Assembly: GCA_016929555.1 (NCBI GenBank)
Contig: JAFGIO010000030.1
Location: 1-49,828 of the forward strand
Length of the DNA stretch: 49,828 nt
From: Deltaproteobacteria bacterium
GTDB taxonomy: Bacteria > Desulfobacterota > Syntrophia > Syntrophales > JAFGIO01
Direction of reading: 5' to 3'
The notes under the pieces: generated by a model
Seen by the model: the letters and a program-made list of their open reading frames with translations, nothing else
Told to the model about the DNA's origin: nothing
Databases searched by the model: none
Shown here: one piece after another, positions 2,056 through 44,629 of the stretch
How positions within the stretch are numbered: position 1 is the first letter of the stretch
Layout of the letters: the number at the start of each line of letters is the position of its first letter
Made by a program: the position numbers and the translations under genes

Positions 2056-2125
2056 CGATGATCGAAGTACGCTTCGGCATGGAATTTGCGTAATAGGGTC
2101 GTTCGGGGAGGAACGACAGGAAATC

Positions 2126-2758
2126 ATGATCGGCATTATCGACTATCGGGCGGGAAACCTGACCAGCGTCGCCAGGGCGCTTCAAAAGCTGGGGCAGCCC
2201 TGCCGGATCACCGATGATCCCGCTGTGCTCGGGGAGGCAACCCATCTCATCTTTCCGGGTGTTGGAGCGGCCGGCGAGGCCATGGCCCATCTGCAGGGCA
2301 AAGGATTGGATCGGTGGATCCGGCAGTGGGTTCGGCAGGGGAAGCCTCTATTGGGCATCTGCCTGGGCACGCAGGTCATCTTTGACCACAGCGAGGAAAA
2401 CGACACGCCCTGCCTGGGCATCCTCAAAGGCTCGGTGCGGAGGTTCCCCGCCGGCCTTGAAAAAGACGGCCTTCCCCTCAAAATTCCCCATATGGGTTGG
2501 AACGAGGTCCGCTTCAAGAATCATCCTGTGTTCGCGGGCCTGCCCAAAGGAGCCGAATTTTATTTCGTTCATTCGTACTATCCCGCTCCCGCCGATGAAG
2601 GCTCGATCATCGGAACCGTCGAGTACGGGCTGACCTTCTGCGCGGCCGTCGCTCAAGGCAACCTCGTTGCCGTTCAGTTCCACCCGGAAAAGAGCGGGAA
2701 CCCGGGGCTTGCGATCCTGGCCAACTTCTGCCGCTGGAGGGGAAACGATGCTCAGTAA
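2126..2758 (+). CDS. hisH: imidazole glycerol phosphate synthase, glutamine amidotransferase subunit
   Basis: [12 protein letters not shown]... with GICLG nucleophile elbow and HSYY/FHPEKS motifs. ATG at 2126 is preceded by the ggggagg RBS. The track ORF start at 2024 overlaps the upstream gene and is unlikely. Confidence 0.9.
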
Positions 2759-3527
2759 AAGGATCATTCCCTGCCTGGATGTCCGGGCGGGCCTCTTGAC
2801 CAAGGGTATCCGGTTCGAGAACAACATCGACCTGGGAGATCCCGTGGAGGCCGCCAGGCACTACTACGAGCAGGGGGCCGACGAGATCGTTTTCTACGAT
2901 ATTACCGCTTCTTCCGAAGGCAGGGATATTCTGATCGATGTGGTTCGACGGGTTGCGCAGGAGATCTTTATTCCCTTTTCCGTCGGCGGCGGCCTCCGAA
3001 CCGTGGAGGATATGCGGCGTGTCATTCTGGCCGGCGCGGAGAAGATCAGCGTCAATTCCGAGGCCGTGAAGAATCCCGCCCTTATCGAGGAAGGCGCCGG
3101 CGCCTTCGGAAGCCAATGCGTTGTCCTAGGCATGGACGTCAAGAAGGTGGAGGCATCGGCAAAGATACCCTCGGGCTACGAGGTCGTCATTCACGGGGGG
3201 CGGATCTTCACGGGTATGGACGCCCTCCGGTGGGCCCGGGAAGCCGAGCGTCTGGGGGCAGGGGAGATCTGTCTCAATTCCATCGATGCCGACGGCACGC
3301 AGGATGGATACGAGATCGACCTGACGGCCCTTATCTCTACCCATGTGGGGATTCCCCTGATCGCCTCGGGCGGTGCGGGACGGCCGGAACACCTCCTGGA
3401 GGTGCTGACCCGGGGCCGGGCCGATGCCGCCCTCATCGCCTCCATGGTCCATTACCGGACATACACGGTTGCAGAAATCAAGGATTTTCTTTCGAATCGG
3501 GGCGTCAAGGTCCGAAGGGCCTGGTGA
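2748..3527 (+). CDS. hisF: imidazole glycerol phosphate synthase, cyclase subunit
   Basis: [12 protein letters not shown]..., a typical HisF N-terminus, with SVGGG and ASGGAG phosphate-binding motifs. ATG at 2748 overlaps the hisH stop by 11 nt. Confidence 0.92.
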
Positions 3528-3582
3528 AGCCTTCACCACACCGCCGACCCGCCGGAAAATAAAAAAGGAAACCTGAACCATC

Positions 3583-3611
3583 TTGATTATTCTTTGGGGG
3601 GGATATATACT
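3583..3611 (+). promoter_or_regulatory. sigma-70-type promoter candidate for pdxS-pdxT
   Basis: TTGATT (3583-3588), 17-nt spacer, TATACT (3606-3611), about 60 nt upstream of the pdxS GTG start. Confidence 0.5.
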
Positions 3612-3670
3612 TACCGACGGAAATCCCAGGAAAAAAATAAATACTTAGGAGTCAGGGAGGCAAGAAGGAC

Positions 3671-4552
3671 GTGGACGCAAGAAGGCATCAACTCAATGTC
3701 CAACTGGCGCAAATGCTCAAGGGCGGCGTCATCATGGACGTAACCAATGTGGAACAGGCGAAGATCGCCGAAGAGGCGGGCGCCGTGGCCGTTATGGCGC
3801 TGGAGCGGGTGCCCGCCGATATCCGGCGGGACGGCGGCGTGGCCCGGATGTCCGACCCGGCCATGATCGCCGAGATCAAGCGGGCGGTATCGATTCCGGT
3901 CATGGCCAAGGCGAGGATCGGACACTTTGTGGAGGCCCAGCTCCTGGAGGCCCTGAAGATCGACTACATCGACGAAAGCGAGGTGCTGACCCCTGCCGAC
4001 GAGGAGTGCCACATCGACAAGAAGCTCTTTTCCATTCCCTTCGTCTGCGGTGCCAGGAACCTCGGGGAGGCGCTCCGGCGCATCGCCGAGGGGGCGGCCA
4101 TGATCCGTACAAAGGGTGAGGCGGGAACCGGCAATGTCGTCGAGGCCGTACGCCACATGCGGACGATGAATCGGGGAATCCGACAGCTGGCGGGCATGCC
4201 TCCGGAAGAGGTGACGGGATACGCCAAGGAGAACGGCATCCCTTATGAATTGGCCCTCCAGGTAAGGGAACTGGGCAGGCTGCCCGTGGTGAACTTCGCC
4301 GCAGGCGGGATCGCCACTCCCGCAGATGCAGCCCTCATGATGCAATTGGGCTGCGACGGCATCTTTGTCGGTTCGGGCATCTTCAAATCCGCGGATCCGG
4401 CCGTGCGGGCCCGGGCCATCGTGAAGGCGACGGCCTATTACAACGACCCGGAAAAGGTTCTCGAGGCGTCCATGGGCCTGGGGGAGGCCATGGCAGGATT
4501 GGAGATATCCCAGATCCCCAAGGAGCAGCTCCTGGCCGGTCGGGGCTGGTAG
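3671..4552 (+). CDS. pdxS: pyridoxal 5'-phosphate synthase, lyase subunit
   Basis: 293 aa, GTG start after the agggagg RBS. Strongly conserved PdxS motifs: [39 protein letters not shown]. Confidence 0.93.
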
Positions 4553-4596
4553 CGGTCCTTCCGTTGGCCGTTGCCATGAGGGGATATAACTGACCG

Positions 4597-5262
4597 ATGG
4601 GCGACCGCACCTTATCCGCAATCGGCGTTCTGAATCTCCAGGGCGATGTGGCGGAGCACCTCGATCATCTGGCCCGTCTGGGTATCGAGGGCACGCCGGT
4701 CAAGGAGCCGGCTGCCCTGAGCGGGCTGGCCGGCCTGATCATTCCGGGGGGTGAAAGCACCTGCCTTGCCCGCCTGATGCGCACCTTCGGCATCGCACAA
4801 GCTATAGAGAATGAATTCCGCAGGGGAATGAAGATCTGGGGAACCTGCGCCGGCGCCATCCTGATGGCTCGGGAGGTCGTCGGCGAAGCACCCTGCCTCG
4901 GCCTTATCGATCTGGTCATCGAACGAAACAGTTTCGGAAGCCAGCTGGACAGCTTCATCAGCGAAGCCGTTATCCCCCGCGTATCGGAAAGACCCCTGCC
5001 GCTCGTCTTCATCCGGGCGCCGAAGGTTCTCAGGATCGGACCCGGCGTGAAGGAGCTTCTGCGAATCGATGACTACATCGCGGCAGCGGAAAGCGGCGAG
5101 GCCCTCGTGACCGTCTTCCATCCCGAAATGACACCCTCCGTAGCCTTTCACAGGTATTTCGCCAGGAAATGCGGGCTTGATCCCTATGGCCCGGATCTTC
5201 AGCCCGACGTGGATCCGAAATGGATCACAACAAGCTGGACCCGGCTCGCACGAATTATCTGA
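4597..5262 (+). CDS. pdxT: pyridoxal 5'-phosphate synthase, glutaminase subunit
   Basis: IGVLNLQGDVAEH, PGGEST, GTCAG (Cys nucleophile) and FHPE motifs. About 25 aa longer at the C-terminus than I would expect for PdxT. Confidence 0.88.
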   Translation: MGDRTLSAIGVLNLQGDVAEHLDHLARLGIEGTPVKEPAALSGLAGLIIPGGESTCLARLMRTFGIAQAIENEFRRGMKIWGTCAGAILMAREVVGEAPCLGLIDLVIERNSFGSQLDSFISEAVIPRVSERPLPLVFIRAPKVLRIGPGVKELLRIDDYIAAAESGEALVTVFHPEMTPSVAFHRYFARKCGLDPYGPDLQPDVDPKWITTSWTRLARII

Positions 5263-5442: not shown

Positions 5443-7332
5443 TTGTACCCTCATTATGATATCATCGTCGTGGGCGGCGGACACGCCGGCTGCGAGGCGG
5501 CCCTGGCGGCGGCCCGGATGGGCTGCGAGGTGATCCTCTTCAATATCAACCTGGATTCCGTCGCCCTCATGTCCTGCAACCCCGCCATCGGAGGCCTGGC
5601 CAAGGGCCAGCTCGTCAAGGAGATCGACGCCCTGGGCGGCGAGATGGGCAGGATCGCCGACAGGACGGCGATCCATTTCCGGCTTCTCAACGCCTCGAAG
5701 GGGCCGGCGGTGCAGTCGTCGCGGTTTCAGTGCGACAAGCAGCTTTACCGGCTCGCCATGAAGGCCGTCGTGGAAAGAGAAAGCCGCCTCCATCTGCGTC
5801 AGAGCCTGGTGGAGCGCCTTCTCGTGGAAGGGGACCGGGTAACGGGCGTCCAGGATCAGACAGGTTTCTGTTACGGCGCAAAGGCCGTGGTCATTGCCAC
5901 GGGAACTTTCCTCGACGGCTTGATCCATATCGGCAAGGCCAGCTTCCCGGCGGGGCGTGCCGGCGAGGTGGCCTCGCTGACCCTTGCCCGTTCTCTGCGG
6001 GAGATGGGCTTCGATATGGGACGCATGAAGACGGGGACGCCGCCCCGGCTGCGCTCATCCTCCATCGACTTTTCCCGGCTCGTTCGCCAGGACAGCGATC
6101 CCGACCCGATGCCTTTTTCCTTCACCACAGAGCAGCTTCGCCCGGAACGTCTTCCGTCCTTCTTCAGCGGCACCCATGCCGAGACCCACCGCCTCATCCG
6201 CGAGAATATCGCCTGCTCTCCACTCTATTCCGGCGTTATCAAGGGAATCAGCGCCCGCTATTGTCCCTCTCTGGAGGATAAGGTGATGCGCTTCGCGGGC
6301 AAGGAAAGCCATCCCGTCGTCCTGGAGCACGAAGGGCTGGATACGGAAGAGGTCTATGCCAAGGGGCTGGGAAACTGCATGCCGCCGGAACTCCAGGAGC
6401 GGATCGTCCACAGCGTGCCGGGCCTCGAAGCGGCCGAGATCATGCGTTCCGCCTACGCCATCGAATACGATTTCGTTCAGCCTACCCAGCTCAAACGAAC
6501 CCTGGAAACGAAGGCCGTCGCAGGCCTCTACCTCGCCGGTCAGATCAACGGCACTTCGGGTTACGAGGAGGCCGCCGCCCAGGGTCTCTGGGCCGGCATC
6601 AATGCGGCCCTCGCCGTCCAGGGGAAGCCTCCCTTTATCCTCGACCGGGCCGACGCCTATATGGGGGTCCTGATCGACGATCTGGTCGTTCGAGGGGTGG
6701 ATGAACCCTATCGGATGTTCACCTCCCGGGCCGAATACCGTCTCATCCTTCGGGAAGACAATGCCGTTTTCCGCCTCTTGGGCAAGGGTTTCGAGCTCGG
6801 CCTGATCGCCCGGGAGCACTTTGAGCGGCTCCAGGAAAAGATCCGGAAGGTTGAGGAGGGTCTTACATCACTTGCCGCCGTTACAATTTACCCTACAGAG
6901 CAGGCCAACGAGGCCCTCGCGAGCCTGGGTACGGCCGCGATCCGGAATCCGGTAACGCTGGCCCAGCTTCTGAAGCGCAACGAAATCGGTTACGACGATC
7001 TCAAGGGGTTTTCGGGCTGGCAGCCCGTCGGCGACCGGGACGTGAAAAAGCAGATCGAGATCGAAACGAAGTACGAAGGATACATCAAACGGCAAATCGA
7101 GGCGGTTCGGAAACTGCGGGAGATGGAAGCGAAGCGGATCCCTCCGGGATTGGATTATCTCTCCCTTCCGGGGCTTTCCAACGAACTGAAGATGAAGCTT
7201 ATGAGAATCGAACCCGCCACCATCGGACAAGCCGAGAGAATCCCCGGGATGACCCAGGCCGCCCTTACCGCTATCCTGGTCGGCATAAGAAAGATGGAAG
7301 TCGCCTCCGGTCCGCCTCCGGAGGCTGCTTAG
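5443..7332 (+). CDS. mnmG: tRNA uridine-5-carboxymethylaminomethyl(34) synthesis enzyme MnmG (GidA)
   Basis: 629 aa. N-terminal [19 protein letters not shown] fold, [17 protein letters not shown] motif, typical MnmG length. Confidence 0.95.
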
Positions 7333-7377
7333 GGGCTGCCCGGCACATTGCTTTCATCTCATTTATCAGGAGGATAC

Positions 7378-12378: not shown

Positions 12379-13998
12379 ATGAACGATTCTCTCTGGCGGC
12401 CTTCGCAGATCGGCGCCCCCGACAACCGGAATCTGAGCGTCCACAACTACGAAGAACTGGCCGCCCTTCACGCCATCGCCCGCATTCTGGCCCAACCTCA
12501 GGAATTGAGGGATCAGCTCGAGCGGGTGCTTCAGGAGATGAGCGGCCGCCTGGGGATGCAGCGGGGAATGATCTCTTTGCTGGACCGGGAGACGGGCGAG
12601 GCGTGGCTCGATGTGGCCCATGACTTCAACATCCGGGACATGGAGGTCACCTACCAGCCCGGAGAAGGCATTACGGGACAGGTTGCCCAATCGGGGCGTC
12701 CCATGGCAATCGCCAATCTGGGAAAAGAAACCCATTTCCTGGATCGCACCGGCGCGCGGCGCTTCCTGAACCGGTCCGAACTCGCCTTCCTCTGCGTGCC
12801 CATCATCTACGACGCCCGGGTCGTGGGCGTCCTTTCGGCGGACAAGGTGGCCAGGCAGGTAGAGAACCTGGATCGGGAATTGGCCATGCTTTCCTCCGTG
12901 GCGGAACTGATCGCCAAAACGGTCCATTACCGCGCCCTGGACGAGGACAACCGGCGTTTGCGCCGGATCATCGGCCGCACCCGGACGCCTTCCGTCGATA
13001 TGATCGGCCGATCCAGGGCCATACAGGAGGTTTTCAGCCTCATCGCCCAGGTGGCCCCTTCCAACACCTCCGTTCTTATTCACGGCGAAACGGGAACGGG
13101 TAAGGAACTGGCGGCCAGGGCCATCCATCAGAACAGTCCCCGCAAAAAGGGCCCCCTGGTGGAAGTGAACTGTGCCGCCATGCCCGATACCCTCATCGAA
13201 AGCGAACTTTTCGGCCATGAAAAGGGCGCCTTCACCGGGGCAAGCTACCAGCGGCGGGGCCGCTTCGAAGAGGCCAACAACGGCACCATCTTTCTCGACG
13301 AGGTGGGCGAGCTCTCGGCGGCAGCCCAGGTCAAGCTGCTCAGGGTCATTCAGGAAAAGCAGTTTCAGCCTCTGGGATCGTCCCGGACCATTCATGTCAA
13401 CGTGCGCATCATCGGCGCAACCAACCGCAATCTCGAGGCGGATATTGCCTCCGGACGTTTTCGCGCTGATCTCTTTTACCGTCTGAACGTCTTTCCCATT
13501 TATCTCCCGCCGCTTCGGGAGAGGGGAAGCGATATCATCCTGCTGGCCGATCACTTCATTCTGAAATACAGCAACGAACTGCAGAAACCGGTAAAGCGGA
13601 TCTCGAAGGCGGTGATGGAGCGGTTTCTCTCCTACCACTGGCCGGGCAACGTGCGGGAGCTGGAAAACTGCATCGAAAGGGCCGTTCTATTGGCCTCGGG
13701 AAACATTGTCGATACCGTCCACATGCCGCCATCGTTGCAGGCCAGATCCCAGGAGGGCGATTCAAAGAAGGTACAGGGAACCCTGAACACGGTCATTTCA
13801 TCCCAGGAGAGGGCCATGATCATAGAAGCCCTGAAGGAGACCCGGGGCAATCAGAGCGAGGCCGCCAAACTCCTGGGGACGACCAAGAGGATCATCCAGT
13901 ATAAAATCCGCAAGCTCGACATCGACCCGGCCCGCTTCCGTCGGAAGCCGGGTATCAATGATGCGGACAAGGTTGCGACAGATCCTGAGGATGCCTGA
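12379..13998 (+). CDS. sigma-54-dependent transcriptional activator with N-terminal GAF domain (NifA-like architecture)
   Basis: GAF region, AAA+ GETGTGKE Walker A, GAFTGA loop ([15 protein letters not shown]), C-terminal Fis-type HTH ([22 protein letters not shown]). Confidence 0.9.
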
Positions 13999-14321: not shown

Positions 14322-15452
14322 ATGTGCCGTTTATTTGCCGTGACCAGCGATGAGCCCTTCTCTCCCATGGTTGCCCTCCGGGCCATCGACGTGATGAAAG
14401 AAGGTCACGACGGTTCCGGGGTTGGCCTCTATCTGACCGATCTGGGTTCCGATTTCGAGCAGTTCAAGGGGGAGCCCATCCTCTCGGGAATCTTTTCCAA
14501 CGAGGGTCTCAAGGCCCTGGACCGCTACATGATGGACCTCGACTTCATGGTGAAGTACAAGCTTTCCATCCGGCCGGCCAAAAACCCGCCTCCCGGAACG
14601 CCGCGCCGGGACAACTATGTGATCCGGGTCTACGAATATCCTCCCGACTGGGAATCCCTGACGACCGAAGAAATCCAGCATCGTCTCCTTCTTTGCCGCC
14701 TGCAGCTCCGCAAGATGGGGGAGGCGGACGAATCCATGATGGTCTTCAGCTTCTGGCCCGACGCCATCATGATCAAGGAAGTGGGCGATCCCATGGCCGT
14801 GGCGGAATATCTGGGATTGAACCGCAAGGAGCTTCAAGCCCGGACCATGCTCGCTCAGGGGAGGCAGAACACGAACTACGCCATCAACATTTACGCCTGT
14901 CATCCTTTTTTCATCCAGGGCTTCGCCACCATGACCAACGGGGAGAACACGGCCTTCGTTCCGATCCGAGAATTCCTGATGTCCAGGAACTATCCCGGCT
15001 ACACGGGCTACCAGTCGGATTCCGAGGTGTTCACCCACATCCTCCACTATACGAGGAAAAACCTGGGGCTGGGGCTGGACATGTACAAGCACATCATTAC
15101 CCCCCTGAAGGACGAAGAGCTGGTCCGGCATCCCGACGGTCAACGGCTGCGCCTTTGGAAGCAAAGCTGCCGGCCCCTGATCATCGACGGGCCCAACTGC
15201 GTGATCGGCTGCCTGCCCGACAAGACCCTCTTCATGGTTCAGGACAGCAAAAAGCTCCGTCCCGGCATCGTCGGCGGCCATCCGGGCATGTTCGCCTTCT
15301 CCTCGGAGATGTGCGGACTGGACGCGGCCATCCCGGCACGGGACAAGAGCAGGGATTTCCAGCCGATGAAATACGATACCGTGGCCGTGGGGCCGGATCG
15401 CAAGGAGGTGAAGCGATGGAGCCAATGGGAAGGCTCGATCCCTCTGAACTGA
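14322..15452 (+). CDS. glutamate synthase, class II (Ntn) glutamine amidotransferase subunit (split, archaeal-type GltB domain 1)
   Basis: Starts MCRLFAV (catalytic Cys2). 376 aa. First gene of a three-gene glutamate synthase set. Confidence 0.8.
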   Translation: MCRLFAVTSDEPFSPMVALRAIDVMKEGHDGSGVGLYLTDLGSDFEQFKGEPILSGIFSNEGLKALDRYMMDLDFMVKYKLSIRPAKNPPPGTPRRDNYVIRVYEYPPDWESLTTEEIQHRLLLCRLQLRKMGEADESMMVFSFWPDAIMIKEVGDPMAVAEYLGLNRKELQARTMLAQGRQNTNYAINIYACHPFFIQGFATMTNGENTAFVPIREFLMSRNYPGYTGYQSDSEVFTHILHYTRKNLGLGLDMYKHIITPLKDEELVRHPDGQRLRLWKQSCRPLIIDGPNCVIGCLPDKTLFMVQDSKKLRPGIVGGHPGMFAFSSEMCGLDAAIPARDKSRDFQPMKYDTVAVGPDRKEVKRWSQWEGSIPLN

Positions 15453-17050
15453 GCGTCAAGGACCTGCCCTGGCAGATCCTCTGGGACAAGGAGAAATGTT
15501 CCCTCTGCGGCCGCTGCACCGCCGCATGTCCCGTCCGAGCCATCGAACTGGGCGTGCATCGGAAACGGATCCTGCAGATCCCCGTGGGGCTTCAGGAACA
15601 TCCATCGAATCTGTTCAGCCTATATCACGGAATCCGCCAGCGGACCGACCCGGCCCATGCCTGTACGGGTTGCGCCCTGTGCAGTCTCGTCTGCCCCAAC
15701 GGGGCCATCGTCCCCATCCGCAGCGCCGAAACCGACAAGCTTCGCTTCCATGTCAACGCCGGGGGCACGCCGCGCAGGCGGGGCGGGCGCCGCAACGATC
15801 CCCGGAGCCTGCTGGACGAGATCAAGTTCATCCGCATTTCCATGCTGACCGATCCGGCCCTCGATGCGGGGCGCCATGAGTTCGAGCTCCGCACCCTGCT
15901 GGGCCGCGTTTTACCCCCCGAGCAGATTCCGACGGTCATCGCACAGGACGGCTGGGCGCCGCCGGTGCGGGAAATCTACCCGCTCATCATCGGCAGCATG
16001 TCCTTCGGCGCCCTGTCGCCCAACATGTGGGAGGGGATCCAACTGGGCGTAGCCTATCTGAACGAGGAGATGGGGATGCCGGTCCGGGTCTGCACCGGCG
16101 AGGGCGGCTGTCCGCCGAGACTTCTGCGTTCGCGGTTCCTGAAATATGTCATCCTGCAGATCGCCAGCGGCTACTTCGGCTGGGACGAGATCATCCACGC
16201 CCTGCCCGATATGAAGGAGGATCCCTGTGCCGTCGAGATCAAATACGGCCAGGGGGCCAAACCGGGGGACGGCGGATTGCTTATGTGGTACAAGGTGAAC
16301 CGGCTCATTGCCGCCATCCGGGGGGTGCCGCCGGGCATCAGCCTTCCCAGCCCGCCGACGCACCAGACCAAATACTCCATCGAGGAGGCCGTGGCCAAGA
16401 TGATCCAGTCCATGTCCATGGCCTGGGGATTCCGGGTTCCCGTTTTCCCCAAGATATCGGCAACCTCTACGACGCTCGCCGTCTTGAACAACCTGACGAG
16501 AAACCCCTATGCCGGGGGGCTGGCCTTGGACGGCGAAGACGGCGGCACCGGAGCAGCCTACAACGTCTCCATGGACCATATGGGCCACCCCATCGCAAGC
16601 AATGTCCGCGACGCCTACCTCAATCTGGTCAGGCTCGGCAAACAGAACGAGCTTCCGCTTCTGGCCGCGGGAGGCATCGGGAAGAACGGCAACCTGGCCG
16701 CCAACGCCGCCGCCCTGATCATGCTGGGAGCGAGCGGCGTGCAGATCGGGAAATATCTCATGCAGGCCGCCGCCGGCTGTCTGGGTTCGGAGGCTGATCG
16801 CTGCAACATCTGCAACATCGGCCTCTGCCCCAAGGGGATCACTTCCCAGGATCCGAGGCTGGATCGACGGCTGGACCCGGAAAAGGTGGCCGAACGGCTG
16901 GTGGATGTCTATCTCAGCTTCGATACGGAGCTGAAGAAGATCGTCGCCCCCCTGGGGCGCTCCACGTCACTGCCCATCGGGATGTCCGACGCTCTCGGCA
17001 TCGCGGATCACCCTGCGGCCGAGCGCCTAGGCATCCGTTATGTCATATAA
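15416..17050 (+). CDS. glutamate synthase FMN/substrate-binding subunit with N-terminal 2x[4Fe-4S] ferredoxin domain (GltB domain 2)
   Basis: CSLCGRCTAACP and CTGCALCSLVCP cluster motifs, then a GltS FMN-domain sequence (IGSMSFGALS, EIKYGQGAKPGDGG, AAGGIG). ATG at 15416 lies 7 nt after AAGGAGG. The upstream 241 codons of track ORF 14693.. are an out-of-frame overlap of the previous gene. Confidence 0.85.
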   Translation: MEPMGRLDPSELSVKDLPWQILWDKEKCSLCGRCTAACPVRAIELGVHRKRILQIPVGLQEHPSNLFSLYHGIRQRTDPAHACTGCALCSLVCPNGAIVPIRSAETDKLRFHVNAGGTPRRRGGRRNDPRSLLDEIKFIRISMLTDPALDAGRHEFELRTLLGRVLPPEQIPTVIAQDGWAPPVREIYPLIIGSMSFGALSPNMWEGIQLGVAYLNEEMGMPVRVCTGEGGCPPRLLRSRFLKYVILQIASGYFGWDEIIHALPDMKEDPCAVEIKYGQGAKPGDGGLLMWYKVNRLIAAIRGVPPGISLPSPPTHQTKYSIEEAVAKMIQSMSMAWGFRVPVFPKISATSTTLAVLNNLTRNPYAGGLALDGEDGGTGAAYNVSMDHMGHPIASNVRDAYLNLVRLGKQNELPLLAAGGIGKNGNLAANAAALIMLGASGVQIGKYLMQAAAGCLGSEADRCNICNIGLCPKGITSQDPRLDRRLDPEKVAERLVDVYLSFDTELKKIVAPLGRSTSLPIGMSDALGIADHPAAERLGIRYVI

Positions 17051-17069
17051 ATTGCGTTAAGGAGCCTTC

Positions 17070-19403
17070 ATGTCACCCAAACCGACCATCATTCTCCCCG
17101 GCATGGAGAAAGGCCTTCGCGTCGACTCCAGGATCCTGGAAGAACGCATCCAGAAGGCCGTCAGCGACGGGCACCGCGTTATCGAGGTCATCGCGCAGGG
17201 GCAGCACGGCATCGGCGGCCGGCTCTGGAAGGCGGGCAGCGAGTCCGTAATGGTGCGCATCCTGGGGACCTCGGGCCAGCGCGTCGGTTCCATGGGTTTC
17301 CCCAACACCGTCATCGACGTTGTCGGGCCCGCCTCCGACGATGTGGGATGGCTGAACGCCGGCGCCCGGATCGTGGTGCGCGGCAACGCCACCAACGGCA
17401 CCGGCAACGCCATGGCCCAGGGCAAGATCTACATCGCGGGCAGCATCGGCGCCCGGGGCATGACAATGACGAAGCACAATCCCCGCTTCGACCCGCCGGA
17501 GCTCTGGGTCCTGGGGGGGGTGGGGGACTCCTTTGCCGAGTTCATGGCCGGCGGCATCGCCGTGATCTGCGGCCAGAACCCCCAGAACACGGAAAACGTT
17601 CTGGGCTATCGTCCCTGCGTTGGCATGGTGGGCGGCAAGATCTTTTTCCGGGGTCCCCATCAGGGCATCAGCGATCAGGATGCGAGGATCGCTCCTCTTT
17701 CCGACGAAGACTGGGAGTGGCTGACCCAGAACATGAAGGAATTCCTGGAGATCGTCAAACAGAAAGATCTTCTTCCGCGGCTCACCGGCGACCGCGGGGA
17801 CTGGCAGCTCATCGTGGCCCGCAAGCCCCAGGAAAAGAAAAGCGGGACCGTAAGAAACCTGAAACAGTTCCGCGAGGCCGTCTGGAATCGGGAACTGGGA
17901 GGCGGCGGGCTCATCGGCGATCTGACCGATAGGGACCGCAGCCCCATCGAGATCATCACGACGGGGACGCTGCGCCGTTTCATCCCGCTTTGGGAAAACG
18001 CGAAATACCTCCCGCCCTGCCAGGCCAGCTGCCCCACGGGCATCCCCGTTCAGAAGCGGTGGGCGCTGATCCGCAAGGGACAAATCGACGAGGCCGTGGA
18101 TCTGGCCCTCCTCTATACCCCCTTTCCGGCCACGGTGTGCGGCCATCTCTGTCCGAATCTCTGCATGCAGAACTGCACCCGGCATTTTTCGAGCCTGCCC
18201 GCCGTCGATACGACCCTTTTGGGGAAGGCGAGCCTCCAGGCGAAAAGCCCCGAACCGCTGCCTCCCACGGGCAGGCGCATCGCCGTTATCGGCGGCGGCG
18301 CCGCGGGCCTTTCCGTGGCCTGGCAGCTCTGGTTGAAGGGCCACGAACCGGTGATTTACGAGATGCGGGACAAACTGGGCGGAAAGATTACGGACAGCGT
18401 GCCCCGGAGCCGCATCCCCGACGAGGTTATCGAGCACGAACTGAATCGTCTGGCCGAGAAGCTCAGCCATCGGAATCTGGGACAGGCAATTTCCCTTGAG
18501 GCTTTTGTCAAGCTCCGGGAGGAGTTCGATTTTATCGTGATCGCCGCGGGCGCCCAGACGCCGAGGACGCTTCCCATCCCCGGCAGTGACCGGGCCGCAG
18601 CCGCCCTGGATTTCCTGCGCCGGGCCAGAAATGACGAGGCTTCCGTAGGAGAGAAGGTGGTCATCATCGGCGCGGGCAACGTCGGCTGCGACGCCGCCGC
18701 CGAGGCGGCCAGGGCCGGCGCGCGGGATATTACCCTGGTCGACATCCAGGAGCCGGCATCCTTCGGGGTGGAGCGCAGGCATGCAGAAGCGGCGGGCGCG
18801 CGCTTTCTCTGGCCCCGGAATGTCCTGGCCATTGCATCAACAGGAGTGGAGCTCTCAGGCGGGGAGGTGCTGCCGGCGGACACGGTCATCGTGGCCGTCG
18901 GCGACCAGCCGGATCTCTCCTTTCTGCCCGAAGAGATTGCCACACAGCGCGGTTTTGTCGTTGTGGACGATCGCTTCCGGAGCAGCGATCCCCGGGTGTT
19001 TGCCATCGGGGATGCGGTGAGGCCGGGTCTTCTGACGGAGGCCATCGGCGCAGGGCGCATCGCTGCGGAGGCCATCGACGATCTGCTGAGAGGCCGCCAG
19101 GAGACTTACGACCGGCTGCCCATGCTGGACCGGCGGAGGGTCAAGCTGGAATACTTCGATCCCCGGGTGCTTTCCTTCGAGGATCCAGCCTCCTGCGCCC
19201 TGCAATGCGCCTCCTGCGGCGCCTGCCGCGACTGCCGCCTCTGCGAGACGATCTGTCCCGAGAGCGCCATCACGCGGCGTACCCTTGAAGGGGAGGCCTT
19301 CGAATACGTCGTGGATGCCGACCGCTGCATCGGCTGCGGGTTCTGCGCGGGCGCCTGTCCCACCGGCGTATGGGCGCTTGTCGAAAACGACCCGATGGAA
19401 TAA
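17070..19403 (+). CDS. fusion protein: glutamate synthase GXGXG domain (GltB domain 3) + GltD-like NAD(P)H/FAD oxidoreductase + C-terminal 2x[4Fe-4S] ferredoxin
   Basis: N-terminal repetitive GXGXG-type beta-helix sequence (GQHGIGG, GNATNGTGN, GSIGARG), central RIAVIGGGAAGLSVA and VVIIGAGNVGCD dinucleotide folds, C-terminal CRLCETICP / CIGCGFCAGACP. Confidence 0.8.
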   Translation: MSPKPTIILPGMEKGLRVDSRILEERIQKAVSDGHRVIEVIAQGQHGIGGRLWKAGSESVMVRILGTSGQRVGSMGFPNTVIDVVGPASDDVGWLNAGARIVVRGNATNGTGNAMAQGKIYIAGSIGARGMTMTKHNPRFDPPELWVLGGVGDSFAEFMAGGIAVICGQNPQNTENVLGYRPCVGMVGGKIFFRGPHQGISDQDARIAPLSDEDWEWLTQNMKEFLEIVKQKDLLPRLTGDRGDWQLIVARKPQEKKSGTVRNLKQFREAVWNRELGGGGLIGDLTDRDRSPIEIITTGTLRRFIPLWENAKYLPPCQASCPTGIPVQKRWALIRKGQIDEAVDLALLYTPFPATVCGHLCPNLCMQNCTRHFSSLPAVDTTLLGKASLQAKSPEPLPPTGRRIAVIGGGAAGLSVAWQLWLKGHEPVIYEMRDKLGGKITDSVPRSRIPDEVIEHELNRLAEKLSHRNLGQAISLEAFVKLREEFDFIVIAAGAQTPRTLPIPGSDRAAAALDFLRRARNDEASVGEKVVIIGAGNVGCDAAAEAARAGARDITLVDIQEPASFGVERRHAEAAGARFLWPRNVLAIASTGVELSGGEVLPADTVIVAVGDQPDLSFLPEEIATQRGFVVVDDRFRSSDPRVFAIGDAVRPGLLTEAIGAGRIAAEAIDDLLRGRQETYDRLPMLDRRRVKLEYFDPRVLSFEDPASCALQCASCGACRDCRLCETICPESAITRRTLEGEAFEYVVDADRCIGCGFCAGACPTGVWALVENDPME

Positions 19404-19486
19404 CAAGGAAAGGCTTTTCATCGTAGCATCTGTAATCAAAGGCGAGATTCCACTTAACCATACTGTAGCCAAGAAAGGAGAAAAAG

Positions 19487-20818
19487 ATGTTTACCTGTAA
19501 AACGGAAAAAGATGTCCTGAAGGCTGTAAAAGATAACAATGTGAGTTTCATTCAGTACTGGTTCACCGATGTTCTGGGCGTACAGAAGATTTTCAGCATC
19601 ACCCCCTCGGAGCTGCCGGAAGGTATGGCCGAGGGCATGGGCTTCGACGGTTCCTCCATCGAGGGATTCTGCCGGATCGAGGAAAGCGATATGATCGCGA
19701 AGCCGGATCCGACAACCTTCCAGTTTCTTCCCTACCGCCCCAGCGACCGGCCCGTGGCGCGCATGTTCTGCGACATCCTGAACCCCGACGGCACCCCCTA
19801 CGATGGGGATCCCCGCTATGTCCTCAAGAGAATGCTGAAGAAGGTCGGCGACAAGGGTTATACCTTCTACGTGGGTCCTGAACTGGAATTTTTCTACTTC
19901 GCCTCCGACAAGGCGCCGGAATGCCTGGACCGCGGGGGATACTTCGACGGACTTCCCGTGGACCGGGCCACCGATCTGCGCCGCCAGACGATCTTTGCCC
20001 TGCAGGACATGGGCATCCGCGTCGAATATTCCCACCACGAGGTGGCCCCGAGCCAGCATGAAATCGACCTCCGCTTCGCCGATGCCCTGGTGATGGCCGA
20101 CAACGTCATGGCCTACCGGGCGGCCGTGAAGGAGATCGCCCGGCAGAACGGCGTTTATGCCACCTTCATGCCGAAACCCATCTTCGGCCAGAACGGCAGC
20201 GGCATGCACACCCATCAGTCCCTCTTCAAGGGAACGAAGAACACCTTCTTCGACGGCCGCGACCCCTACAACCTGTCGAAGACGGCCAAGCATTACATCG
20301 CGGGACTCATGGTCCACGCCCCGGAGATCACCGCCGTCTGCAACCAGTGGATCAACTCCTATAAGAGGCTGGTCCCCGGTTACGAAGCGCCTGTATACGT
20401 TTCCTGGGCGCGCCGCAACCGGTCCGCGATGATACGGGTTCCCATGTACAAGCCCGGCTAGGAACATGCAACGCGGATTGAATACCGATCCCCCGATCCG
20501 GCCTGCAATCCCTACCTGGCCTTCGCCGTTATGCTGGCGGCGGGAATGAAGGGCATCGAGAAATCCTATCCGCTGCCCGATCCCGTGGAAGAAGATATCT
20601 TCGAAATGGACGAAAATGCCCGCAACGAGGCCGGGATCGCCTCGCTGCCCGGCAGCCTTTACGAGGCGCTCCAGGCGGTCATGGCCAGTGATCTTGTGAA
20701 GGAAACCCTGGGCGAACACATTTTTTCAAAGTTCATCGCGAACAAGAAAGTAGAGTGGGACCGCTTCCGGACCCACGTCAGCCAGTATGAGATTGACCGA
20801 TACCTTCCCATACTGTAG
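19487..20818 (+). pseudogene. glnA: type I glutamine synthetase, single 443-codon frame interrupted by one in-frame TAG at 20459-20461
   Basis: The two track ORFs (19487..20461 and 20531..20818) are in the same frame. The 23 codons between them encode [23 protein letters not shown], a conserved GS motif. Total length matches GS-I. Confidence 0.85.
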
Positions 20819-20875
20819 AAGGACCGGTCAGCGCAAGGACCCTTAACGACTGGCGGCAGTCGAAAGGATTGATGA

Positions 20876-20916
20876 AATCCCCCTTGCCCCCCTTCGGAAG
20901 GGGGGGTGGGGGGATT
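20876..20916 (+). terminator. GC-rich hairpin after glnA (terminator and/or intergenic repeat element)
   Basis: aatcccccttgcccccc-ttcggaag-ggggggtggggggatt: C-run/G-run stem-loop 58 nt after the glnA stop. It shares the core CCCCCTTGCCCC with the element at 45616-45653 (opposite orientation). Confidence 0.5.
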
Positions 20917-20964
20917 CTTGGATATTGCCGGTTCAAGCTTCTAAATTGAACCAAGGAAGGGTTC

Positions 20965-22203
20965 ATGGCCATCGGTCAAGAGGATCGTCCCGCCCTGCTT
21001 GTGCTTGAGGACGGGAGCGTCTATCCGGGGGCGGCCTTCGCCGGCGAGGGGGAGGTCCTGGGGGAAGTCGTCTTCAACACGGGAATGACGGGCTATCAGG
21101 AAATCCTCACGGATCCGTCCTATAAAGGGCAGATCGTCACGATGACCTTCCCCCTCATCGGCAATACCGGGATCAATCCGGAGGACATGGAATCGGACGA
21201 CATCCATTTGGAGGCGTTCGTCGTCCGGGAATATGAACCCCGTCCCAGCAACTGGCGGAGCCGGCAAAACCTGAAGACCTTTCTGGAATTCCACGGCAAG
21301 CTGGGTGTGGAAAACATCGATACACGGGCGCTCACGCGCCGCATCCGCAGCGCCGGCGCCATGCGGGGCATTCTGTCCACGGAGAGCCTGGACACGGACC
21401 TGCTGCTTGCACGGGTTCGCGCCTTCCCCGGCCTCGTCGGCCAGGACCTGGTCAGGACCGTAGGTTGCAGGAAACCCTATCTCTGGAAAGACGGCGCACC
21501 CTGGAAGGCGACCCTCACGCCACTCACCCCGCCGGAGAGAATGGGGGAGATTGTCCCTTCGGAAGGGGATATCCCATCCCCGGGGCGTCTCCGGGTGGTC
21601 GTTCTGGACTGCGGCGTCAAATTCAATATCCTGCGCAATTTGGAAAAGCGGCGGTGCGAGGTTATCGTCGTCCCGGCGGCAAGCACGGCCCAAGACATCC
21701 TGTCCTGGGAACCCGACGGTGTCCTTCTGTCCAACGGACCCGGCGATCCGGCGCCCCTGTCCTACATCGTAGAGGCCGTGCGCGGGCTTCTGGGAAAGGT
21801 TCCCCTGTTCGGCATCTGCCTTGGCCATCAGATCCTGGGACAGGCCCTGGGCGGCCGGACGGCCAAACTGAAATTCGGCCATCACGGCGTCAATCAGCCC
21901 GTAAAGAACCGGCGGTCGGGGCGCGTCGAGATCACCTCCCAGAATCACGGTTTCGTCGTCCTGCCCGAATCGCTTGGTGGTTCGTTCGAAAAGAGCCATG
22001 ACAACCTGAACGACCAGACCTCGGAGGGCATTGCCGTGGCCGACCTCGGGGCCTTCAGCGTTCAGTACCACCCGGAGGCGGCGCCGGGCCCTCACGACGC
22101 CGTCTATCTTTTCGATCGGTTTATCCTGGCGATGCGCGAGGCCAAAGCGGCTCGGACCGTCTTCACCGGAAAGAGGAAGGGCAGGGATGGAGGGTTCCGA
22201 TGA
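20965..22203 (+). CDS. carA: carbamoyl-phosphate synthase small (glutaminase) subunit
   Basis: [29 protein letters not shown] and HPEA motifs. RBS aaggaagg. Confidence 0.93.
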
Positions 22204-23729
22204 TCCTGATCATCGATTACGGCTCCCAATACAACCAGCTCATCGCACGGCGCGTCCGGGAGCAGCACGTCTACTGCCAGATCGAACCTCCCGACATTAC
22301 CCCGGAGATCATCCGGTCCCTGCGCCCGGAGGGGATCATCCTCTCGGGCGGCCCGGCGAGCATTTACGAGGCGGGCGCCCCGAAGGCGTCCCGGGCGATC
22401 TTCGAGACGGGTATTCCCGTCCTCGGGATCTGCTATGGCATGCAGTCCATGGTGGCAGCCCTGGGCGGAGAGGTCATCGGCGTCCGCAAGCGCGAGTATG
22501 GCTTTGCGCAACTGCATATCCGGGAGCCCTCGCCGCTGTTTAGCGGCATCGCCGAAGAGACGACCTGCTGGATGAGCCACGGCGATTCCATCCGCCGCCT
22601 TCCTGCCGGCTTTCGCATCACGGCCTCGACGCCCAGCACGGAGATCGCCGCCATCGAAAACCAGGAGCAAAGACTCTACGGCCTGCAGTTTCACCCGGAG
22701 GTCGCCCATACCCCCGGAGGCAAAAAGATGCTGGAAAACTTTCTCTTTGCCGTCTGCGGCTGCCGCCGCAGTTGGACCATGCGCTCCTTCGCGAGGGAGG
22801 CCGTGGCGGAGATCCGCTCCCAGGTCGGTGACGGCCGGGTCATTCTGGGGCTCAGCGGCGGCGTGGACTCCTCTGTGGCGGCTCTCCTGCTGCACCAGGC
22901 TCTCGGGGAGAGACTAACGGCGATCTTCGTCGACAACGGGGTTCTCCGCCAGGGGGAAGCGGAAGGGGTCCGCGCCCTCTTTCGAAGGCATCTCCAGATG
23001 AACGTCCGCTTCGTCAACGCAAGAATGCAGTTCCTTGCCGCCCTGAAGGGCGTCGTCGATCCGGAGCGCAAGCGCAAGATCATCGGGCGGCTCTTCATCG
23101 AGGTTTTCGAGAAGGAGGCGCGCCGCATTGCCGAGGTTGCCTATCTCGCCCAGGGCACCCTCTATCCCGATGTGATCGAGTCCCGGTCCGCCTTCGGGGG
23201 GCCCAGCGCCGTCATCAAATCCCACCACAACGTCGGCGGCCTGCCGAAGCGGATGAAGCTCAAGCTCGTCGAACCGCTGCGGCACCTCTTCAAGGACGAA
23301 GTCCGGCTGCTCGGAAAGGAACTGGGACTGCCGGACGACCTGATCTGGCGGCAGCCCTTTCCCGGTCCGGGGCTTGCCGTACGCATCATCGGCGAGGTGA
23401 CACCGGGAAGGCTCTCCATCCTCCGCGGGGCCGACGCCATCCTCCAGGATGAGATCCGGGCCGCCGGCCACTACCGAAAGCTCTGGCAGTCCTTCGCCGT
23501 TCTGCTCCCGCTCAAGAGTGTCGGCATCATGGGCGACCAGCGCACCTACGAGCACATCATCGCCCTGCGGGCCGTGACGAGCGAAGACGCCATGACGGCG
23601 GACTGGGCGAGGCTTCCCCATGACCTGCTGGGCAGGATCGGAAACCGGATCATCAACGAGGTCCGGGGTGTGAACCGTGTGGTTTACGACATCAGTTCCA
23701 AGCCGCCCAGCACGATCGAGTGGGAATGA
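22200..23729 (+). CDS. guaA: GMP synthase (glutamine-hydrolysing)
   Basis: 509 aa. GATase GICYGMQ, ATP-PPase P-loop [10 protein letters not shown]-terminal ...PPSTIEWE. The start overlaps the carA stop (ATGA). Confidence 0.95.
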
Positions 23730-23730
23730 G

Positions 23731-26991
<3,261 letters not shown>

Positions 26992-27001
26992 GGAGAAGAC
27001 G

Positions 27002-28417
27002 ATGTCGAAAATGCATGAAAGGGAGGAAAGGCCGCGGGATTCCTGCGGGGTCTTCGCCATTTCCGGACATCCGGAGGCGGCCCGGGTCGCCTTTTTCGGC
27101 CTTTTCGCCCTCCAGCACCGGGGCCAGGAAAGCGCCGGCATCGCCACCTCCGACGGCTTCCAGGTCTGGACGGAGAGGGGAATGGGTCTCGCCTCCGAGG
27201 TCTTCGGAGAAGAGAAGCTTGCGAGACTGCCGGGCAGGCTGGCCATCGGCCACGTGCGCTACTCGACGACGGGCTCCTCGGTCATCGCCAATGCCCAGCC
27301 TTTTGTCGTCCACCACGCCGAAGAATACTACGCCCTGGCCCACAACGGCAACCTGATCAACGCCAGAGCCCTTAGAGAGCGGCTGGAGACCCGCGGCTCG
27401 ATCTTCCAGTCCACCATGGACACCGAGGTGGTCGTTCACCTGATGGCGCCCTATTTCAAACACGGGCTCGAAAAGGCCCTCACAAGGGCCTTTTCCGAGA
27501 TCGAAGGCGCCTACAGCATCGTCATGCTGACCCGCGACCGGATCATCGCCGCCCGGGACCCGCGGGGATTCCGCCCCCTGTCTCTGGGAATGCTCAACGG
27601 GGGCTGGGCCGTCGCCTCCGAAACCTGCGCCTTCGATCTGGTGGGGGCAAGGCACGTCCGCGACGTGGAGCCCGGCGAGATCGTCGTCATCGGCGAAGAG
27701 GGCCTTCACAGCTACCTTCCCTATCCGAAGGTGCGGCACGCCCACTGCATCTTCGAGCTGATCTACTTCGCCCGGCCCGACAGCCAGGTCTTCGGCCAGA
27801 ACGTCTATCTCGCCCGCAAGAGCCTGGGGCGTCGGCTTGCCAGGGAGTACCGGCCCGAGGTGGATCTCGTCATGCCCTTCCCCGACTCGGGCAATTACGC
27901 GGCCCTGGGCTACGCCGAGGAGAGCCGCCTCCCCTTCGAGATGGGCATGATCCGAAACCATTACGTGGGGCGGACCTTCATCCAGCCCACCCAGCCCATG
28001 CGGGACTTCGGCGTCCGGGTCAAGCTGAATCCCGTCAAACCGCTGCTGGCCGGCAAGAGGGTCCTGATCGTCGAGGATTCCATCATCCGGGGCACAACGA
28101 GCCGCAACCGGGTAAAAAGCCTGCGGGAGTGCGGGGTCCGTGAGATCCACATGGCCGTCAGTTGTCCCCCGACGCGCCACCCCTGCCCCTACGGCATCGA
28201 CTTCTCCTCCAAGGGCGAGCTTTTGGCCGCCCAGAAGGAAAGAGAAGAGGAAATCGCCTCCTTCATCGGCCTCGACTCCCTCCATTACCTCACCCTCGAG
28301 GGCATGCTCGATGCCACGGGCATGTCCCCCGAGGGCTTCTGCCTTGCCTGCTACACCGGTCAATACCCGATCGTCCCGCCCGAGGATCTTGGGAAGTTCT
28401 GCCTCGAAATGAAGTAG
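27002..28417 (+). CDS. purF: amidophosphoribosyltransferase
   Basis: Propeptide followed by CGVFAI (Ntn Cys), PRTase motif VLIVEDSIIRGTT, C-terminal Cys residues for the [4Fe-4S] cluster. Confidence 0.93.
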   Translation: MSKMHEREERPRDSCGVFAISGHPEAARVAFFGLFALQHRGQESAGIATSDGFQVWTERGMGLASEVFGEEKLARLPGRLAIGHVRYSTTGSSVIANAQPFVVHHAEEYYALAHNGNLINARALRERLETRGSIFQSTMDTEVVVHLMAPYFKHGLEKALTRAFSEIEGAYSIVMLTRDRIIAARDPRGFRPLSLGMLNGGWAVASETCAFDLVGARHVRDVEPGEIVVIGEEGLHSYLPYPKVRHAHCIFELIYFARPDSQVFGQNVYLARKSLGRRLAREYRPEVDLVMPFPDSGNYAALGYAEESRLPFEMGMIRNHYVGRTFIQPTQPMRDFGVRVKLNPVKPLLAGKRVLIVEDSIIRGTTSRNRVKSLRECGVREIHMAVSCPPTRHPCPYGIDFSSKGELLAAQKEREEEIASFIGLDSLHYLTLEGMLDATGMSPEGFCLACYTGQYPIVPPEDLGKFCLEMK

Positions 28418-33846: not shown

Positions 33847-33995
33847 GATGTAGTCAATGGGTAGCGAAAGTCAGGATAATACAACAATTATAGGGCCGAA
33901 TGTCCCGCCCTTTCTTCACGATCAGATCATGATGAAACCGAATGTCTCCTTTGGTTCCTGCGCATGGAATAGCGCAACGGGTCAATCGAAGCGCG

Positions 33996-34958
33996 TTAGA
34001 CGCCCCATTTGCGGATCGCTCCGACGGCTTCATCGGCAGCGAATTCGATCAAACCCCTGCAGACAGCAGCCTTCCCGATGAATCCTTGAAAATCGTCATA
34101 ACCTTCAAAGGACTGACCGGTGAGTTCCCGGCAATTCATCGAACCGGCCCTTTGGCGGAAATTGGCCACGATTTCTTTGCCGATGCAAAAAGGCTCCGGC
34201 GCCCCCATTGGGTGCTCCTTGAGCAAATTGATGTGGCCGATGAGAAAAGCCTTGATCGTATCCCGGAGGTTGCCCTGGCGGATGTCCAGACCGAACTTGA
34301 GGTTGATGCCGAGAATTGCCCCAACCAGGGCGCCGCAGACGCCGCCGCTCAGTCCTACTCCGCCGTCGAGCACAAAGGCTATCCGGTCCAACGGATCGTT
34401 GCCGATTCCTGTTCTTTTCCTGAACAAATCGAGCACTCCAAGTGCGCAGTGGACCGGTTGATGGACGGCGCCGCCGGAGAGACCGCCGGTTTCGGGCAGT
34501 CCGGCCCGAATTCTGTCGTGCAGGTATCGAATGGCGCCTCGTATATGCCACAGGCAGCCGGCCACCCGGTCTCCCGGCAGCAAATATCTGATCTGCCCCC
34601 AGGGCTTGTAAAAATCCGCCCTGCTGCGCAGACGGCAGAAGGTCGTTCCATAGGAATCGCCGAACCACCGGCTGTATTGTCCAACCAGATCCGTGATCCC
34701 TGCCTCCGCGGGCGGTCCCCGCTCCTGCAACGCCCGGTCAAATGCCAGGGCCAGTCCCAGAGCGCCGCCGGTGATTACCCCGCAGGTCGACCCGGACGCG
34801 ACCACGCCCCCCTCCAGACCGGTTACCGCTCGCAAGACCGAGTCTTCCTGCCGCCCGATGATGCCCTGAATGGCTTCGTGCGAGGCCAGGGCGCAGTTCA
34901 AATCCTTGATCAGATAAAATGCAGCCCTGCGGCCCCAATAGGCCCTGTCGTTTTTCAT
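33996..34958 (-). CDS. C_GCAxxG_C_C-family protein, tandem two-repeat form
   Basis: Two copies of the family core: GLEGGVVASGSTCGVITGGALGLALAF and VLDGGVGLSGGVCGALVGAILGINLKFG, each preceded and followed by conserved Cys residues. Confidence 0.7.
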   Translation of the reverse strand: MKNDRAYWGRRAAFYLIKDLNCALASHEAIQGIIGRQEDSVLRAVTGLEGGVVASGSTCGVITGGALGLALAFDRALQERGPPAEAGITDLVGQYSRWFGDSYGTTFCRLRSRADFYKPWGQIRYLLPGDRVAGCLWHIRGAIRYLHDRIRAGLPETGGLSGGAVHQPVHCALGVLDLFRKRTGIGNDPLDRIAFVLDGGVGLSGGVCGALVGAILGINLKFGLDIRQGNLRDTIKAFLIGHINLLKEHPMGAPEPFCIGKEIVANFRQRAGSMNCRELTGQSFEGYDDFQGFIGKAAVCRGLIEFAADEAVGAIRKWGV

Positions 34959-34970
34959 AGGGGACCCTTG

Positions 34971-36239
34971 TTATGCAGCCGGGGAGTCCTGGCGCCACGG
35001 CACGGTGTCGCGTGGTTCGTCCGTGACCGTTTCCGCAGGTTCGAACCGGGGGTAGCCGTCATCTGCTGCCGCAGATCGGCAGCCCTGCTCAAGCAGGATG
35101 CCGCAGACCAGATGGCGCCATGGATAAGGAAAGGCGGCCAGGCACGAATGGGTGGCCCGCATGAATCGAATGCCCCACTCGTCCCGGTTCCTGACGGCTT
35201 CCGCGATGTCTGAAACCTTGGCCGGGCCGAGGTTCCGATGCGCAGCGATTACCGCGTCCCTCTGGTCGCGATGGAACCGTTCAAAAAGTTCAAAGAACCT
35301 GATGCAATTATCCCGACCGACGATGTAATCACCTTCCCGTACCTTGTCGCGCAGATCGTCGGGAAACCGGGCCAGGACCTCTTGCCCCCAATTGCTTTGG
35401 GAGCGGTGGCCGTCACCGGCCATCTCGATGTATCCTTCTTCGGCCATGGTCTTGTAGAAACCGTTGTAGCGGATCAGGCCGTTCACCGAGCTGTACATCA
35501 GCACCGGATTGATCTCGATGGTCACGTCGCCGGCGATCATGATCTTGAACTCCGGATCGTAGATCGACACATGGCCGGGCGAATGGGCGCAGTCGGGGAT
35601 CAGGACCAGTCTGCCCAGCGGCCAGCCTTTGACCGTGACACTGCCGAAAGTGAAGTCCCGGCACTCGTCCATCCGCAGGGGTTCTACCTGTTCACGTTTC
35701 GACACCAACCCACCATAGGCCATGGCCACGATGTTTTGCACGGCCATATCGGCCAGTTCCCGGGAATGTTTTCCGATGGCGGGAATCAGGGGAAGAATCG
35801 GCGACAGGTCTTCGCGCCAGTCGTAGTAAGGCTCCCGGGCCTTGAAATCCGCCACCCAATCCAGGGCAAATTCCAGCACCGGCCGCTCCCGTTCGTTCAG
35901 CACAAAATGTGTTTCACCGATGGCGTGTTCGTCGAGAATCTCGTTGTTGCCGGCATGGTCCAGGTGCGCCTGCGTCAACGTCATGTATAGACGATCCACT
36001 TGGCCGGCATAGGCGTCGATCAGCGAGACCAGTTTTTCCATCATCACGGGGCCGCGGCCGTTGTCGATCAAAACGAGGTTTCTGTCGTCTTTGACGAGAT
36101 AGGCATTGCTGCAGACGTGCTGGCCGAAAAAAACATTCGGAAACCAGCCTTCAATCCACCAGAAGTCCGGCGCCATCTGGCGCACCTGCTTGAGGAGAAT
36201 GGGATCCTTGCGGATCAATACAGCGTCACTGAGTTTCAC
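34971..36239 (-). CDS. metallo-beta-lactamase-fold protein with altered first metal motif
   Basis: GTG start at 36239, 6 nt after AGGAGG. TQAHLDH in place of HxHxDH, then CAHSPGH, IAGD and GDGH. The remaining 129 upstream codons of track ORF 34971..36626 have no family signal. Confidence 0.7.
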   Translation of the reverse strand: MKLSDAVLIRKDPILLKQVRQMAPDFWWIEGWFPNVFFGQHVCSNAYLVKDDRNLVLIDNGRGPVMMEKLVSLIDAYAGQVDRLYMTLTQAHLDHAGNNEILDEHAIGETHFVLNERERPVLEFALDWVADFKAREPYYDWREDLSPILPLIPAIGKHSRELADMAVQNIVAMAYGGLVSKREQVEPLRMDECRDFTFGSVTVKGWPLGRLVLIPDCAHSPGHVSIYDPEFKIMIAGDVTIEINPVLMYSSVNGLIRYNGFYKTMAEEGYIEMAGDGHRSQSNWGQEVLARFPDDLRDKVREGDYIVGRDNCIRFFELFERFHRDQRDAVIAAHRNLGPAKVSDIAEAVRNRDEWGIRFMRATHSCLAAFPYPWRHLVCGILLEQGCRSAAADDGYPRFEPAETVTDEPRDTVPWRQDSPAA

Positions 36240-43544: not shown

Positions 43545-43598
43545 CTCGAGGGGGAGGGGTGGGGTGGGTGTGAACCATTTTGAATTTGTTAATTTTTT

Positions 43599-44613: not shown

Positions 44614-44629
44614 GGAATGGAGAAACATC

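Follow-up and report, generated by a model that had tools for sequence, protein, structure and literature searches.

An interrupted glnA within a nitrogen-assimilation cluster

We analysed a 49.8-kb stretch of DNA from a Syntrophales bacterium (hereafter the window), which carries 36 open reading frames (ORFs). Among them is glnA, encoding a glutamine synthetase (GS), which runs in a single frame through 443 codons to a terminal TAG and contains one internal stop, a TAG at codon 325. The features of the locus, all on the forward strand, are as follows.

19475..19480 (+): Shine-Dalgarno-like AAGGAG, 6 nt 5′ of the glnA ATG (read from the sequence)
19487..20818 (+): glnA, type I (alpha-like) glutamine synthetase, 443 codons with a stop at codon 325 (translation, Pfam, TIGR00653)
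20459..20461 (+): in-frame TAG, codon 325, ancestral AAG (Lys) (sequence, orthologue codons, homologue residues)
20471..20518 (+): codons 329–344, conserved GS-I active-site segment, 3′ of the TAG and 5′ of the next Met (translation, alignments with orthologues and M. mazei GlnA1)
20531..20818 (+): 95-codon ORF in the same frame, the C-terminal end of glnA (ORF list, end of Pfam Gln-synt_C)
20876..20916 (+): very stable G+C-rich hairpin (CCCCCUUGCCCCCCUUCGGAAGGGGGGGUGGGGGG) in the 146-nt glnA–carA spacer (folding)

In the ORF list, glnA appears as two entries in a common frame, 19487–20461 (324 amino acids) and 20531–20818 (95 amino acids), with 23 codons between the TAG and the Met at 20531 ((20531 − 20462)/3). 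A preliminary description of this DNA had proposed an in-frame amber codon at 20459–20461 in an otherwise intact gene, with the 23 intervening codons encoding the conserved R-x-E-x-R/PD..NPYL segment and no further lesion downstream in a combined length of 443 codons; the sequence and its translation bear out each of these points. Pfam assigned Gln-synt_N (PF03951, 6.5e-28) and Gln-synt_C (PF00120) to the glnA pieces. Residues 107–322 cover positions 2–232 of the Gln-synt_C profile and the post-TAG piece covers positions 234–344 of 344, which makes them adjoining halves of one domain. With Lys set at codon 325, the product scored 531 bits against the NCBIfam equivalog TIGR00653 (type I glutamate–ammonia ligase; cut-off 429 bits). 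Type I glutamine synthetases are expected to be uninterrupted chains of ~440–470 amino acids, and the window copy departs from this in its internal stop. The correct gene call is a single glnA with an internal stop; the two-ORF call is wrong.

The closest solved structures were those of M. mazei GlnA1 (8s59 and 8tfb; E ~1e-153). Alignment with these and with Bacillus subtilis GS (4lnf and 4s0r) spanned the full length of the protein (E 1e-140 to 1e-153), and all share the Gln-synt_N plus Gln-synt_C architecture. Full-length matches to the M. mazei and M. thermolithotrophicus enzymes, 4lnf and 4s0r (E 1e-138 to 1e-153) point to the GS-I alpha subtype. Entries 1f1h/2gls and 2bvc/1hto, presumably the adenylylated GS-I beta enzymes of Salmonella and M. 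tuberculosis, aligned only from about residue 148 (E ~1e-80). Compared with M. mazei GlnA1, the window protein and its Syntrophales relatives share a three-residue insertion in the loop that holds codon 325 (…YKPGKE… versus …TR---GN…), and the window copy has a TAG there.

The gene order around glnA runs from a NifA-like sigma-54 activator (12379–13998) through three glutamate-synthase-like ORFs (14322–19403) to glnA, carA, guaA, carB and purF. This order, from the activator to purF, is matched in the related loci L082–L085 and L081, in which glnA is intact at 443 amino acids, indicating that the interrupted gene is the orthologue belonging to the cluster and no stray paralogue. The earlier placement of glnA in the middle of a nitrogen-assimilation cluster is thereby upheld. 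Neither the sigma-54 promoter consensus nor the sigma-70 and terminator scans returned promoters or terminators around glnA.

Glutamine-making and glutamine-using enzymes are densely clustered in two parts of the window, 2024–5262 and 14322–28417. The former holds a GATase-domain ORF, a His_biosynth-family ORF (hisH/hisF-like) and pdxS/pdxT; the latter lies downstream of the NifA-like GAF/sigma-54 activator, which precedes the glutamate-synthase-like set. The order from ThiF to purF is kept in L082–L085. The first ORF of the glutamate-synthase-like set (14322–15452, forward strand, 376 amino acids) occupies the place where an amidotransferase domain would be expected and had no Pfam or NCBIfam match. 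In L082–L085 an ORF of equal length, likewise without a Pfam match, stands at this place, and the sole hint to the window ORF's nature came from the GlmS glutaminase domain in the PDB, at a non-significant E of 0.88.

The glnA–carA spacer (20819–20964) is 146 nt long, versus 35 nt in L082, and its predicted fold reached −64 kcal/mol (z = −3.14). The hairpin at 20876–20916 has no T tail and was therefore left uncalled by the terminator scan. A similar CCCC..TCGGAAG..GGGG element lies at 880–896, after the first ORF of the window. Lacking a T tail, the element may be REP-like and not an intrinsic terminator.

Elsewhere in the window, two ORFs had no Pfam or NCBIfam match: 39326–40546 (forward strand, 406 amino acids), with a coding-like GC3 of 0.71, and 49047–49802 (reverse strand, 251 amino acids). 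At 41846–49050, a divergent sigma-54 activator adjoins an operon of an SDR, an NMO-family oxidoreductase, an enoyl-CoA hydratase and two tandem family III CoA-transferases; the operon probably serves the metabolism of acyl-CoA or of aromatic/alicyclic acids, as would befit a syntroph that oxidises fatty or aromatic acids. The 423-amino-acid ORF at 33942–35213 (forward strand), which had no family matches, overlaps in antisense a C_GCAxxG_C_C protein (33996–34958, reverse strand) and is probably one of the spurious long ORFs that G+C-rich DNA often contains.

Ancestral codon and selection on either side of it

A protein search across 5.8 billion clusters returned intact proteins, the best 92% identical and almost all of 443 amino acids. 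Among the 120 closest homologues, 112 were exactly 443 amino acids long and the remainder 442–461; where sources were named, they were mostly metagenome-assembled genomes (MAGs) of Syntrophales, Syntrophus or Deltaproteobacteria. Alignment of the conceptual 443-codon product to its GS-I homologues placed Lys at the TAG in all 119 of the closest (79–92% identical, from Syntrophales MAGs), within the motif MYKPGKE[KNQ..]ATR.

At the DNA level, we compared the window with its closest relatives (L081, L082 and L084) and with two relatives from the genome collection (L001 and L002). The orthologous codon is AAG in L081, L082, L084 and L001, and AAA in L002. The alignment around it is ungapped, and the remaining differences are almost all at third positions. 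Together, a Lys codon at five of five loci and an ungapped alignment indicate that the TAG arose by one A-to-T transversion, in agreement with the preliminary description, which had suggested a single change from AAG and expected Lys or Gly-Lys in homologues. The same alignment ruled out a local chimera or mis-join at the TAG. Among the matches listed in a scan of genome contigs, the best were 84–85% identical.

More distant homologues, at 57–85% identity and from many phyla, mostly carry Lys at this position and also Ala, Ser, Asn or Arg. Judged from these alignments, Lys 325 is conserved in the clade and is no universally required residue. Given this variation and the position of codon 325 in a loop insertion, any residue there would probably be tolerated.

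We next consider selection on the two parts of the gene. Nei–Gojobori dN/dS (omega) of the window glnA against L081 and L082, at dS ~0.5–0.7, was 0.054–0.062 for codons 1–324 and 0.074–0.079 for codons 326–443; between the two intact orthologues L081 and L082 it was 0.09–0.11. The low omega 3′ of the TAG indicates that, for practically all of the lineage's history, this part has faced purifying selection as strong as that on the 5′ part. Against the 112 homologues of equal length, the only private residues besides the stop were H327 and M399, both in variable columns, and in a leave-one-out control ordinary homologues averaged ~2.3 private residues. No second lesion was found in glnA. Decay into a pseudogene would leave more than one lesion, a relaxed dN/dS and private changes where the family is conserved, and the window glnA shows none of these. 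The lack of decay implies that the TAG is very recent, or is not real, or that the 3′ part is still translated; if real, the TAG is very recent.

These results bear directly on whether the gene could be an old pseudogene, or could be split into two functional polypeptides of 324 and 95 amino acids. That a gene caller would list two ORFs speaks for them, but we find both hardly credible: the gene has one lesion, purifying selection is strong 5′ and 3′ of it, no private changes fall at conserved columns, the 23 codons carrying the conserved segment are absent from both pieces, and each of the 119 closest homologues is one chain of ~443 amino acids. Re-initiation, or a split gene, was rejected because the only in-frame ATG (20531) lies 23 codons on, past the active-site segment, and has no purine-rich ribosome-binding site 5′ of it. 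The ribosome-binding site of glnA itself is intact (AAGGAG, 19475–19480).

Distribution of the TAG allele, UAG usage and tests for recoding

The TAG allele is called private here in the sense that no independent copy of the gene is available: the collections searched contain no same-species sequence, and the window's carA and purF likewise had no exact match in them. Exact look-up in the protein collection found neither the 324-amino-acid product nor the 95-amino-acid ORF. Used as a query, the N-terminal 324 amino acids returned full-length proteins at up to 94% identity and no truncated twin among the 5.8 billion protein clusters; a truncated conspecific would rank first in such a search. In metagenomes, an exact 38-base pattern with NNN at codon 325 had no matches, nor did a degenerate scan for M-Y-K-P-G-TAG-E-x-A-T, which was run without an AAG positive control.

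Two other Syntrophales glnA orthologues, P0123 and P0125 from metagenome contigs, have out-of-frame tails (…NPYPGLCSDAGRRA and …TLETTSSRNSWKTRRWNGIDSVRT, respectively). Whether frameshift lesions or assembly errors, they show that disrupted copies of glnA occur sporadically in assemblies.

The 36 window ORFs end in TGA (19), TAA (12) or TAG (5). Those ending in TAG are pdxS (4550–4552), mnmG (7330–7332), glnA (20816–20818), purF (28415–28417) and the enoyl-CoA hydratase gene; the first four had been noted before, at the same positions. The Pfam profiles of pdxS, mnmG and the enoyl-CoA hydratase are covered nearly to their ends, and purF, at 471 amino acids, compares with 472–473 in relatives. 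Under genome-wide reassignment of UAG, TAG would be rare or absent as a terminator and genes would run through it. In the window TAG is an ordinary terminator of genes of normal length, and reassignment is unlikely, as the preliminary description had concluded.

Fifteen nucleotides after the mnmG TAG, an ORF for a HerA-like ATPase starts in the same frame with no intervening stop. As there is no backup stop, efficient read-through of UAG would yield an mnmG–HerA-like fusion. The junction (7330–7350) is a natural in-frame reporter of UAG read-through.

An alternative to a null allele is suppression of the UAG by a pylTSBCD system or a suppressor tRNA, giving a full-length GS with pyrrolysine (Pyl) or another residue at position 325, possibly only under some conditions, given the dual meaning of UAG in Pyl-encoding organisms. 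The perfect preservation of the 118 codons 3′ of the TAG would fit this explanation, as would the probable tolerance of a foreign residue in the loop. Pyl systems are present in some Deltaproteobacteria (PMC1976440), and Pyl insertion, according to PMC12626013, needs no mRNA motif and can occur in native proteins at UAGs that arose by neutral drift. Nonetheless, we regard suppression as unlikely. UAG was found at codon 325 in none of the 119 proteins, none of the five DNA loci and no metagenome match. The 49.8-kb window has no tRNA gene or Rfam match, and no pyl-like gene is among its annotated ORFs. TAG ends 5 of its 36 genes at normal lengths, with the mnmG fusion an expected by-product of read-through. 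A full-text search found no paper joining pyrrolysine with Syntrophales, and literature searches turned up none reporting a natural amber codon in glnA.

The RNA after the TAG was also unremarkable. The 120 nt from the TAG folded no better than shuffled sequences (z = −0.82; 43 of 200 shuffles folded equally well), versus z = −1.28 for the corresponding fold of an AAG-bearing orthologue, and no PYLIS-like stem-loop lies directly 3′ of the TAG. The missing hairpin is compatible with Pyl insertion, since no mRNA motif is required (PMC12626013).

Set beside the UAGs of methylamine methyltransferase genes and the drift-derived Pyl sites (PMC1976440, PMC12626013), glnA resembles both in having an in-frame UAG followed by a conserved 3′ part. 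However, in those systems orthologues share the UAG and pylTSBCD is present in the genome, whereas the window UAG is private, the window shows no pyl genes or tRNA-CUA, and TAG is a normal terminator nearby. A more specific version, in which amber suppression in Syntrophales (by a Pyl cassette or a suppressor tRNA) reads a drift-derived UAG at a tolerant loop position of the main GS and ties GS output to the supply of suppressor or Pyl, we consider more doubtful still; if true, it would be a bacterial case of ambiguous UAG decoding in a core enzyme of nitrogen assimilation.

The preliminary description had held local read-through or mutation to be more plausible than reassignment. Mutation stands; for read-through we found no comparative or structural evidence of programmed recoding, which makes it the least likely of the three options originally put forward (an error, a very recent nonsense pseudogene, or read-through or suppression). 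That framing is otherwise supported, and it is narrowed by the AAG ancestry of the codon, the restriction of the lesion to this assembly, the lack of decay and the ordinary use of TAG as a terminator in the window. The TAG is best read as a very recent mutation or an error in the consensus, and not as a programmed recoding signal.

Origin and meaning of the internal stop

An error of sequencing, polishing or consensus building, with AAG at codon 325 in the organism and an ordinary, intact glnA, is possible but has the lesser claim to our belief. It would account for a gene that is otherwise flawless, with omega of 0.07–0.08 downstream of the stop, no private residues at conserved columns and an intact ribosome-binding site, and for a TAG allele absent from every collection searched, none of which contains same-species sequence. 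A null in a core nitrogen-assimilation gene would also be biologically costly, and lesions of probable technical origin are present in the metagenome orthologues P0123 and P0125. Moreover, the substitution creates a CTAG, a tetranucleotide strongly avoided in the window (8 seen versus ~179 expected from base composition): A-to-T at 20459 makes one of these eight (GGCTAGG).

On the other side, none of the remaining 35 window ORFs has an internal stop or frameshift. Most of them match their main Pfam profile over nearly its whole length, and wherever relatives have a counterpart the lengths agree. Thirty-five clean genes in ~50 kb suggest that the consensus is accurate. In a polished consensus, substitution errors are rare, and of random substitutions no more than a few percent yield a stop.

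On balance, the TAG is probably a private, very recent nonsense allele of an otherwise intact glnA, a reading that includes a population variant fixed in the consensus. A single A-to-T substitution, private to this genome or assembly, would have turned the AAG Lys codon into TAG, and translation would end after residue 324. The resulting product would be missing both the R-x-E-x-R/PD..NPYL segment and the C-terminal helices, and for this reason should be inactive; the R-x-E-x-R segment we take, from established structural work on GS-I, to supply the metal-ligand Glu and the substrate-binding Arg residues. Full-length enzyme would come only from the few ribosomes in which a near-cognate tRNA decodes the UAG. 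The cell would then depend on another source of glutamine, or on a paralogous GS encoded beyond the window. GS is normally indispensable where external glutamine is lacking, which counts against a null allele, and a null allele fixed in a core nitrogen cluster would be costly unless a paralogue exists.

Nonsense alleles confined to single strains are familiar in bacteria, a classic case being the amber alleles of rpoS in E. coli K-12. Every bacterial genome contains interrupted coding sequences, with the M. tuberculosis complex as a surveyed example (PMC2277376). The glnA TAG resembles those cases in being one point lesion, caused by mutation or error, in an intact conserved gene of one strain or assembly. 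It differs in that its target is a core nitrogen-assimilation enzyme and in having no second strain for comparison. It is of an ordinary kind: a conserved gene carrying a lone point lesion.

The finding is, in the first place, a point of annotation and quality control: the locus calls for a single glnA entry marked as carrying an internal stop (pseudo, or a possible sequencing error), in place of two ORFs. Two further consequences can be drawn, neither of which is favoured by the evidence obtained. If the TAG is real and this is the only GS, the organism would be a glutamine auxotroph or would depend on a syntrophic partner; if full-length enzyme is made, there would be amber suppression in a lineage where none has been described.
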